Shown here: piece after piece, positions 15,887-16,878 of the stretch
Numbering within the stretch: position 1 is the stretch's first letter
How the letters are laid out: every line of letters begins with the position of its first letter
Assembly: GCF_003790525.1 (NCBI RefSeq)
Contig: NZ_CP033635.1
Strand: one strand, 5' to 3'
DNA: 64,000 bases
Source: Escherichia coli
GTDB lineage: Bacteria > Pseudomonadota > Gammaproteobacteria > Enterobacterales > Enterobacteriaceae
Program-made: the position numbers and the translations under genes
The notes under the pieces: model-generated
Databases searched by the model: none
What the model was told of the DNA's origin: nothing
What the model saw: only the letters and a program-made list of their open reading frames with translations

Positions 15887-15963
15887 TTTCGCTTTAAAAC
15901 ATATCATGAAACTGGGTATGTTTTGTCTGCCTGCTCTGGGATCGCCGGGGCGGGCATTTTTTT
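15887..15963 (+). ncRNA. flgL 3' UTR, candidate 3'UTR-derived sRNA (FlgO-like)
   Basis: Short 3' UTR ending in the flgL terminator; 3'UTR-derived flagellar sRNAs are described for E. coli. Assignment is from memory of the literature, not from sequence. Confidence 0.3.
15925..15963 (+). terminator. Intrinsic terminator of the flgKL operon
   Basis: GC-rich hairpin (tgcctgc...gcgggca) followed by a T7 run at 15957-15963. Confidence 0.7.
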
Positions 15964-15980
15964 GCATGAGACATAACGAA

Positions 15981-16475
15981 CTATTTAAGACATTCCTGCA
16001 AATCAGCCAATGTTGCCATCAGTATCATAGAATCGACAGGCGATGGTTCAAACCCCACTCGCAGATAAAACTCACGGGCCTGGTCTGATAACGCATGGAC
16101 CAACATTCCGCGAATACCAATGACTTCAGCCGCCTGTAGTACTCGTAGACCGGCATCTCTGACCATCGCACGACCGATGCCCTGACCCTGTAATGATTTA
16201 TCTATTGCCAGACGACCAAGTACTACAACAGGGATCGGTTCTGGCATATTTCGGCGAAATCGTCCTGTCGCGACATACGTTTCAACGGCGCTGGAAGCAA
16301 GCGAATAATATGCCAAAACGTTGCTATACGTATCACAGCTAACAAATGTACGTGATGCGCCGGCAAGCTGATTTTTTAGGGCTCTCTGCTTTAGCCAGTT
16401 ATCCATCGTTTCTACTCCCGAGCAAAAAGAGGTGAATTGATGCCTTGCCATGAGTGGCTCGGGGGCCTGAATCAT
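15981..16475 (-). CDS. GNAT-family acetyltransferase toxin (TacT/AtaT/ItaT-like type II toxin)
   Basis: 164 aa from ATG at 16475, with GGGAG Shine-Dalgarno 8 nt upstream. Acetyl-CoA-binding motif [11 protein letters not shown] and C-terminal FYLRVGF motif typical of tRNA-acetylating GNAT toxins. Confidence 0.8.
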
Positions 16476-16764
16476 TTTTTTTGCTCCCACGGCGCGGGTG
16501 TTTGCATGGTTTTGCGTAATGCAGCATTGGGCGCGGGGGCTGATCCAGACGATTCAAAAATAGCTGGTAATCATCAGAATCGATCCTGAAAATTCTCTGC
16601 TCAATGAGCGCCTCTTCAGCTGCGGCTCTGGCGGCCTCAAGGACAAATTCGGTGCGATTTTTTCCTCGGGCTTTAGCGGCCCGGTCAATAAGATCGCGTT
16701 CTGCGGGTTTTATGCGCAAGTTTAAAGATTCGCGCCTGGCTGGAATGTTATTGGCTGCTGGCAT
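16399..16764 (-). CDS. DUF1778 / ribbon-helix-helix antitoxin (TacA/AtaR-like); 3' end overlaps the toxin by 77 nt
   Basis: ATG at 16764 preceded by AGGA; [47 protein letters not shown] is a typical RHH antitoxin core. The ORF continues through an A8 tract into the toxin CDS; one extra A would end it at a canonical ATGA overlap. Confidence 0.75.
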
Positions 16765-16795
16765 AAATATATCCTTCGGCTTTGCGTGGATGATA

Positions 16796-16827
16796 ATTAT
16801 ACAGCACATGTAACGCTAATGTCATTA
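16796..16827 (-). promoter_or_regulatory. Predicted sigma70 promoter and palindromic operator of the toxin-antitoxin operon
   Basis: Minus strand: -35 ATGACA (16825-16820), 18 nt spacer, -10 TATAAT (16801-16796); palindrome TAATGtCATTA (16817-16827) overlaps the -35. Confidence 0.55.
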
Positions 16828-16850
16828 CAGCAAAGATGCTACCCCTGAAA

Positions 16851-16878
16851 TAAAAAAGCCCTGGCAGTTACCAGGGCT
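16851..16878 (-). terminator. Intrinsic terminator of rne
   Basis: Minus strand: perfect hairpin AGCCCTGGTAACTGCCAGGGCT followed by TTTTTTA, 20 nt after the rne stop. Confidence 0.85.

Follow-up and report, generated by a model that had tools for sequence, protein, structure and literature searches.

A TacAT-type toxin-antitoxin cassette without a terminator of its own, inserted between flgL and rne in Escherichia coli, is likely to be transcribed antisense into the FlgO small RNA

Introduction

Where does transcription stop when a pair of genes has been inserted between two neighbours and carries no recognisable terminator of its own, and does it matter to the neighbours where it stops? We ask this of a toxin-antitoxin cassette lying between the flagellar gene flgL and the RNase E gene rne in a 64,000-nucleotide stretch of Escherichia coli DNA (hereafter the window, from contig NZ_CP033635.1). 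Toxins of the TacAT type arrest growth by acetylating aminoacyl-tRNA and are neutralised by their antitoxins. A literature search by protein accessions and by locus returned no published experiments on the copy of the cassette at flgL-rne, and a search of the same scope (accessions; GNAT toxin-antitoxin at flgL/rne) returned no paper tying it to flagella or to rne. Here, we describe the cassette, its boundaries and the two terminators that flank it, and weigh what becomes of its transcripts.

Results

Layout of the locus and identity of the genes

Window positions 15700..17000 are 99.9% identical to E. coli SMS-3-5 (NC_010498.1), and contain the following features, in the order flgL, toxin, antitoxin, rne:

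14933..15886, plus strand: flgL coding sequence, flagellar hook-associated protein 3 (ORF list; Pfam Flagellin_N, 5e-42; SMS-3-5 RefSeq annotation)
15981..16475, minus strand: GNAT (TacT-type) toxin gene, 164 aa (Pfam GNAT; structure-chain matches; RefSeq annotation)
16399..16764, minus strand: TacA/DUF1778 RHH antitoxin gene, frameshifted here (Pfam TacA1 PF08681, 1e-22; SMS-3-5 comparison)
16796..16829, minus strand: promoter ATGACA-18-TATAAT with an overlapping inverted repeat, the presumed operator (promoter scan)
16898..20071, minus strand: rne (RNase E) coding sequence (ORF list; RefSeq annotation)

On the plus strand flgK is followed by flgL, which ends at 15886. The preliminary description of this DNA had placed rne, antitoxin and toxin together on the minus strand, convergent with flgL, and both the ORF list and the SMS-3-5 annotation agree.

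The toxin, whose TAG stop codon is at 15981..15983 (minus strand), is identical to WP_000613626.1 and matches the Pfam families GNAT PF13508 (5e-9), PF13673 and PF00583. Among solved structures it aligns end to end with 7ak7_A (E 8e-76, residues 1-162), which we take to be a Salmonella TacT chain (its depositor name is 'Acetyltransferase' only), and with 5fvj_A (E 4e-44); KacT and AtaT-type chains are far more remote (E 1e-15 to 1e-20). NCBIfam holds no named family for either the toxin or the antitoxin, and we assign the type from the combination of a GNAT domain with close kinship to characterised TacT proteins. The intact form of the antitoxin has 97 aa, ends at 16472 and overlaps the toxin start in an ATGA, an overlap found in SMS-3-5 and in 683 of the 685 genomes that carry the cassette. 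On these matches, the gene pair is a TacAT-type type II toxin-antitoxin system, an uncharacterised E. coli member of the TacAT family. It shares with Salmonella TacAT, TacAT2 and TacAT3 their common plan (an antitoxin-first operon, a 4-nt ATGA overlap, and a TacA/DUF1778 protein with a GNAT partner), and differs from those modules in its chromosomal site at flgL-rne, its presence in a subset of E. coli and the frameshift of the antitoxin in the window. AtaRT and ItaRT of E. coli and KacAT of Klebsiella are its more distant kin.

The frameshift maps to a single homopolymer:

16535..16539, antitoxin gene (minus strand): run of five G, which is six G in 683 of 685 cassette genomes (comparison with SMS-3-5)

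Relative to SMS-3-5, loss of one G puts the antitoxin out of frame beyond codon 77, so that its last 20 residues are replaced and the ORF runs on to 16399, across the start of an intact toxin gene. In this family it is through the C-terminal tail that the antitoxin neutralises its toxin. The five-G allele occurs in only 2 of the 685 cassette genomes, in unrelated strains, and in both PGAP tags the antitoxin as 'frameshifted' next to an intact toxin. The simplest reading is a homopolymer sequencing error; a real, recurrent slippage mutation is possible.

Upstream of the antitoxin, the promoter match (16825..16796) agrees with the consensus at 11 of 12 positions and is overlapped by the inverted repeat TGTAA-N11-TTACA, a palindrome that we presume to be the site of autoregulation. 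The promoter/operator block GTAATGACAT..GCGTTAC (window 16809..16829) is kept in Klebsiella and Salmonella plasmid relatives (about 2305..2330 in L004 and about 2308..2333 in L006) whose coding regions share only about 70% identity (70-72% at the DNA level), and its conservation suggests an operator common to this TacA subgroup. A second match, within the toxin gene (16051..16024, 9 of 12), was set aside as chance level, three such matches having been found and 1.7 expected.

A single insertion of a minimal unit

The limits of the cassette were set by aligning the window with the empty sites of two cassette-free genomes, one from a lab strain and one from an O157:H7 strain:

15966..16846, minus strand: cassette-specific DNA, 881 bp (alignment with the two empty sites)

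This DNA stands in place of a spacer of ~65 bp that separates the terminators of flgL and rne. Collinearity with the cassette-free genomes extends to ...GGGCATTTTTTTGC, which comprises the flgL terminator and its T-tract, and resumes at GAAATAAAAAAGCCCTGG..., the rne terminator; the spacer that has been replaced is CTATTTTGCATTG...TTCAAAGAT (positions 553..617 of L001, from cassette-free E. coli). Comparison with the empty sites revealed neither a target-site duplication nor flanking repeats at the cassette edges. The empty-site spacer starts with CTATTT, the same six plus-strand bases as the region of the toxin stop codon, through either microhomology or chance.

Of 5426 complete E. coli genomes, 685 (~13%) carry the cassette, always as a single copy and always on the chromosome. 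Since the 101-nt left junction is identical in every one of the 685, the distribution points to one insertion, which has since spread by inheritance or recombination. From the alignment, the mobile unit is the promoter/operator with its two genes and nothing else.

Three other histories were considered and rejected. The first was a plasmid origin: the E. coli and Klebsiella matches labelled as plasmids are Mb-sized records, probably mislabelled chromosomes, and the genuine plasmid relatives, on Salmonella IncHI2 plasmids, are only about 70% identical. Among the records so labelled, CP125156.1 (5.37 Mb) and NZ_CP141089.1 (4.94 Mb) are chromosome-sized and CP088669.1 has 0.73 Mb; the cassette matches in these three should not be taken as plasmid carriage. 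The second was decay in situ, for which the sole 'degraded' cassette, in strain HS-02 (NZ_CP172818.1, L057 about 990..1500), proved to be an assembly artefact: its interior consists of long A, T, C and G homopolymer runs, at which PGAP calls a truncated GNAT pseudogene. The third was the presence of other cargo at the same site, and here the lone outlier, H30, is a divergent empty site.

Terminators on either side

The insertion left an intrinsic terminator on each of its flanks:

15887..15963, plus strand: flgL 3'UTR, the FlgO sRNA equivalent, with stem-loops at about 15895..15925 and 15928..15956 and a U7 tail (fold; alignment)
15928..15963, plus strand: flgL/FlgO intrinsic terminator, 12-bp stem with three G.U pairs, 5-nt loop and T7 at 15957..15963 (scan)
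16848..16879, minus strand: rne intrinsic terminator, 10-bp stem plus TTTTATTT (scan; alignment; fold)

The rne terminator (16879..16856 plus TTTTATTT in the scan) folds with its flanks to -20.9 kcal/mol (z -5.3). It has no U-tract on the plus strand, and is thus one-way, strong on the minus strand only. It is also unchanged in cassette-free genomes, and this, together with its strength, argues against the earlier idea that read-through from rne enters the cassette and couples it to RNase E. In the opposite direction, flgL read-through running antisense over the cassette would meet no stop before becoming antisense to rne (16848..16897, plus strand), because the rne terminator lacks a U-tract on that strand.

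On the other flank, the 77 nt at 15887..15963 fold to -31.4 kcal/mol (z -4.9) and differ by one mismatch from the allele of the lab strain, whose coordinates match those of K-12. The preliminary description had mentioned a flagellar sRNA derived from the flgL 3'UTR, and such an sRNA is on record. In E. coli K-12, processing of the flgL 3'UTR yields FlgO, a ~75-nt doublet that is sigma28-dependent and Hfq-bound and ranks among the most Hfq-enriched sRNAs (PMC10578931). In K-12 it occupies the same place, right after the flgL stop, with about 77 nt, two stem-loops and a U-tract. The element in the window corresponds to it in its position in the flgL 3'UTR, its size, its sequence and a terminator hairpin with the U-tract typical of an Hfq-binding 3' end. 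An Rfam search over 15500..17200, at an E-value threshold, gave two chance-level matches only and no FlgO family. What differs from K-12 is what lies beyond the U-tract: in K-12, the ~65-bp spacer and then the rne terminator; here, the convergent 3' end of the toxin gene, with only 17 nt between the toxin stop and the FlgO T-tract. Hence a cassette transcript that slightly overran the toxin stop would be antisense to FlgO.

This geometry permits a reading in which the cassette regulates its neighbours, that is, antisense RNA from the cassette lowers FlgO and the 3' end of flgL (presumably through RNase III), rne feeds the cassette, and toxin-antitoxin activity, RNase E and flagella become coupled. 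In its favour are the existence of FlgO and its prominence on Hfq, along with a near-consensus promoter, from which derepression could yield substantial antisense RNA. We consider it improbable. Besides the strong rne terminator, the FlgO terminator allele beside the cassette occurs as an identical copy in many cassette-free genomes and hence gives no sign of co-adaptation. Moreover, FlgO has few RIL-seq targets, and its overexpression leaves the number of flagella and motility unchanged (PMC10578931), which counts against the effect on late flagellar gene expression that had been suggested. The absence of any paper joining the cassette to flagella or rne from our literature search weighs on the same side.

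The 3' end of the cassette

The cassette brings almost nothing with it beyond the toxin gene:

15966..15980, minus strand: the sole cassette DNA past the toxin stop, 15 nt, unstructured (sequence)
15604..15616, minus strand: nearest terminator-like match past the toxin, a weak 5-bp stem (scan)

A simple consensus scan, which a weak hairpin with a partial U-tract would escape, found no terminator-like site on the minus strand from the toxin stop (15981) to 15616, in accord with the earlier claim that no U-tract terminator follows that stop. The match at 15604..15616 lies within flgL, about 365 nt from the toxin stop, and may be due to chance. Small minus-strand ORFs past the toxin stop have no ribosome-binding site.

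The absence of a terminator carries no p-value; the strand asymmetry of the flgL hairpin can be measured. On the plus strand the hairpin folds to -22.9 kcal/mol (z -4.0), and none of 200 shuffled sequences did as well. On the minus strand it reaches -9.5 kcal/mol (z -1.6), which 16 of 200 shuffles equalled, and its 3' flank, AGACAAAAC, contains no U. The weakness of the reversed hairpin arises because three G.U pairs turn into A.C mismatches, and two other E. coli alleles, from a lab strain and from O157, are asymmetric in the same way. The minus strand thus offers neither the stable G+C-rich hairpin nor the adjoining U-rich tract of an intrinsic terminator, and the reversed hairpin, weak and without a U-tract, does not qualify as one for the cassette. 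By the same folds and flanks, the flgL/FlgO terminator is one-way only. The preliminary description had noted this hairpin as the only structure past the toxin, with a minus-strand flank that is not U-rich, and the flank and the fold bear it out.

Could the hairpin nonetheless stop both convergent transcripts? Toxin and flgL converge on this one element, which has an A7 tract facing the toxin. SEnd-seq work has described bidirectional terminators between convergent E. coli genes, and one class of them is reported not to look like intrinsic terminators and to depend on a hairpin together with head-on and trailing collisions of polymerases (bioRxiv 10.1101/2022.10.23.513370). With such a stop, polymerases from the toxin gene would pause at the reversed hairpin and be released there, by collision with flgL polymerases or by the hairpin unaided; cassette transcripts would reach no more than about 60 nt past the toxin stop and stay out of the flgL coding region. 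The locus resembles those terminators in having one hairpin element between two stop codons, and differs from them in that its hairpin folds well in one direction only, with a U-tract on one side, and that the convergent pair arose by recent insertion instead of long co-residence. The weak fold and missing U-tract of the reversed hairpin speak against such a shared stop, as does the finding that collision-driven termination works better for highly expressed pairs (bioRxiv 10.1101/2022.10.23.513370), an autorepressed toxin-antitoxin promoter and a flagellar late operon being often low. A shared stop therefore seems to us unlikely, if worth keeping in mind; even with it, about 40 nt of the transcript would still be antisense to the 3' end of FlgO.

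For a transcript that instead reads through the hairpin, two candidate Rho loading regions lie close by:

15903..15980, minus strand: C-rich, weakly structured RNA just past the toxin stop, candidate Rho loading region (composition; weak fold)
15708..15785, minus strand: second candidate Rho loading region, antisense to the 3' coding end of flgL (composition)

The first (15980..15903 as transcribed) has a C/G ratio of 1.53 and 14 YC dimers; the second (15785..15708) has a C/G ratio of 1.93, above the 90th percentile of the window. Both are guesses from composition.

Terminators in related cassettes

Is the missing terminator peculiar to the flgL-rne site? The DNA relatives that are 70-72% identical come from a Klebsiella chromosome and a Salmonella IncHI2 plasmid. 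In both, homology to the cassette ends at the last toxin codons or the stop, and no canonical terminator follows the toxin; in the Klebsiella relative there is a weak hairpin with a partial U-tract about 100 nt past the toxin. Among 43 distant relatives from Proteobacteria, a terminator-like site occurs within 200 nt of the toxin stop in four (9%), and random 210-nt windows from the same loci have one in 8.3%. This agrees with the enterobacterial cases and is weak evidence, since U-tract terminators are rare in G+C-rich DNA and many of these genomes are of that kind. Lack of a terminator is a trait of the cassette family, found in unrelated contexts, and nothing supports its being an adaptation to the flgL-rne locus; this further disfavours a regulatory role for the read-through.

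Discussion

In light of these results, how might transcription of the cassette end? We propose, with moderate confidence, that a minimal TacAT cassette was inserted once between two one-way terminators, that its transcripts read through antisense over FlgO until Rho ends them, and that this has little impact. Transcription would begin at the cassette's own autoregulated sigma70-type promoter, just past the strong rne terminator, and polymerase would pass the toxin stop without meeting an effective intrinsic terminator. With no terminator in the cassette, and only a weak, U-less hairpin in the reversed flgL element, read-through is the most likely outcome, and the antisense RNA is predicted to continue over the 77-nt FlgO and into the 3' end of flgL. 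Rho loads on RNA that is C-rich, unstructured and untranslated, and suppresses antisense transcription. Given these preferences, the expected fate of the untranslated, C-rich and poorly structured cassette RNA is to be ended by Rho within a few hundred nt. When flgKL is on, head-on collisions with its polymerases may add to termination, in keeping with the hairpin-dependent and collision-driven termination of convergent pairs at sites unlike intrinsic terminators (bioRxiv 10.1101/2022.10.23.513370). From the anatomy of the locus we infer, then, both the read-through and its ending by Rho or by polymerase collisions.

The regulatory consequence of this read-through is probably small, because toxin-antitoxin promoters are repressed while FlgO is abundant. 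The overlap with FlgO probably follows from the place of insertion and the terminator-less design of the family, with no sign of a regulatory device. Of the preliminary description, the architecture and the flagellar sRNA have stood; the cross-talk that it had raised between the cassette, RNase E and flagellar gene expression is still speculative, with no support beyond a geometry that allows it. A parallel for an operon transcript running antisense into opposed flagellar genes is the excludon at the mogR locus of Listeria, a long and demonstrated antisense transcript that regulates the genes it covers; the transcript at flgL-rne would be short and is predicted only.

A more elaborate possibility is that the cassette acts as a stress-switched antisense gene, in which loss of the antitoxin leads to derepression of the near-consensus promoter, pairing of read-through RNA with FlgO and the 3' end of flgL, removal of FlgO and trimming of the flgL mRNA. 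We give this still less credence than the regulatory coupling considered above. If true, it would create a lineage-specific link, in ~13% of E. coli, from toxin-antitoxin activation to the flagellar and Hfq network. As it stands, the arrangement is best seen as an ordinary, if neat, consequence of gene placement, and a function for it is speculative.

The predicted read-through would nevertheless have a bearing on how FlgO is viewed. If it occurs, E. coli that bear the cassette, with lineages of human, poultry and livestock origin among them, produce an antisense RNA perfectly complementary to FlgO that is absent in K-12, and what has been learned of FlgO in K-12 might not carry over directly to these strains. 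More broadly, the locus is a clean natural case of a minimal toxin-antitoxin cassette flanked by two one-way terminators, on which one could study how bacteria end the transcripts of horizontally acquired genes that arrive without terminators.
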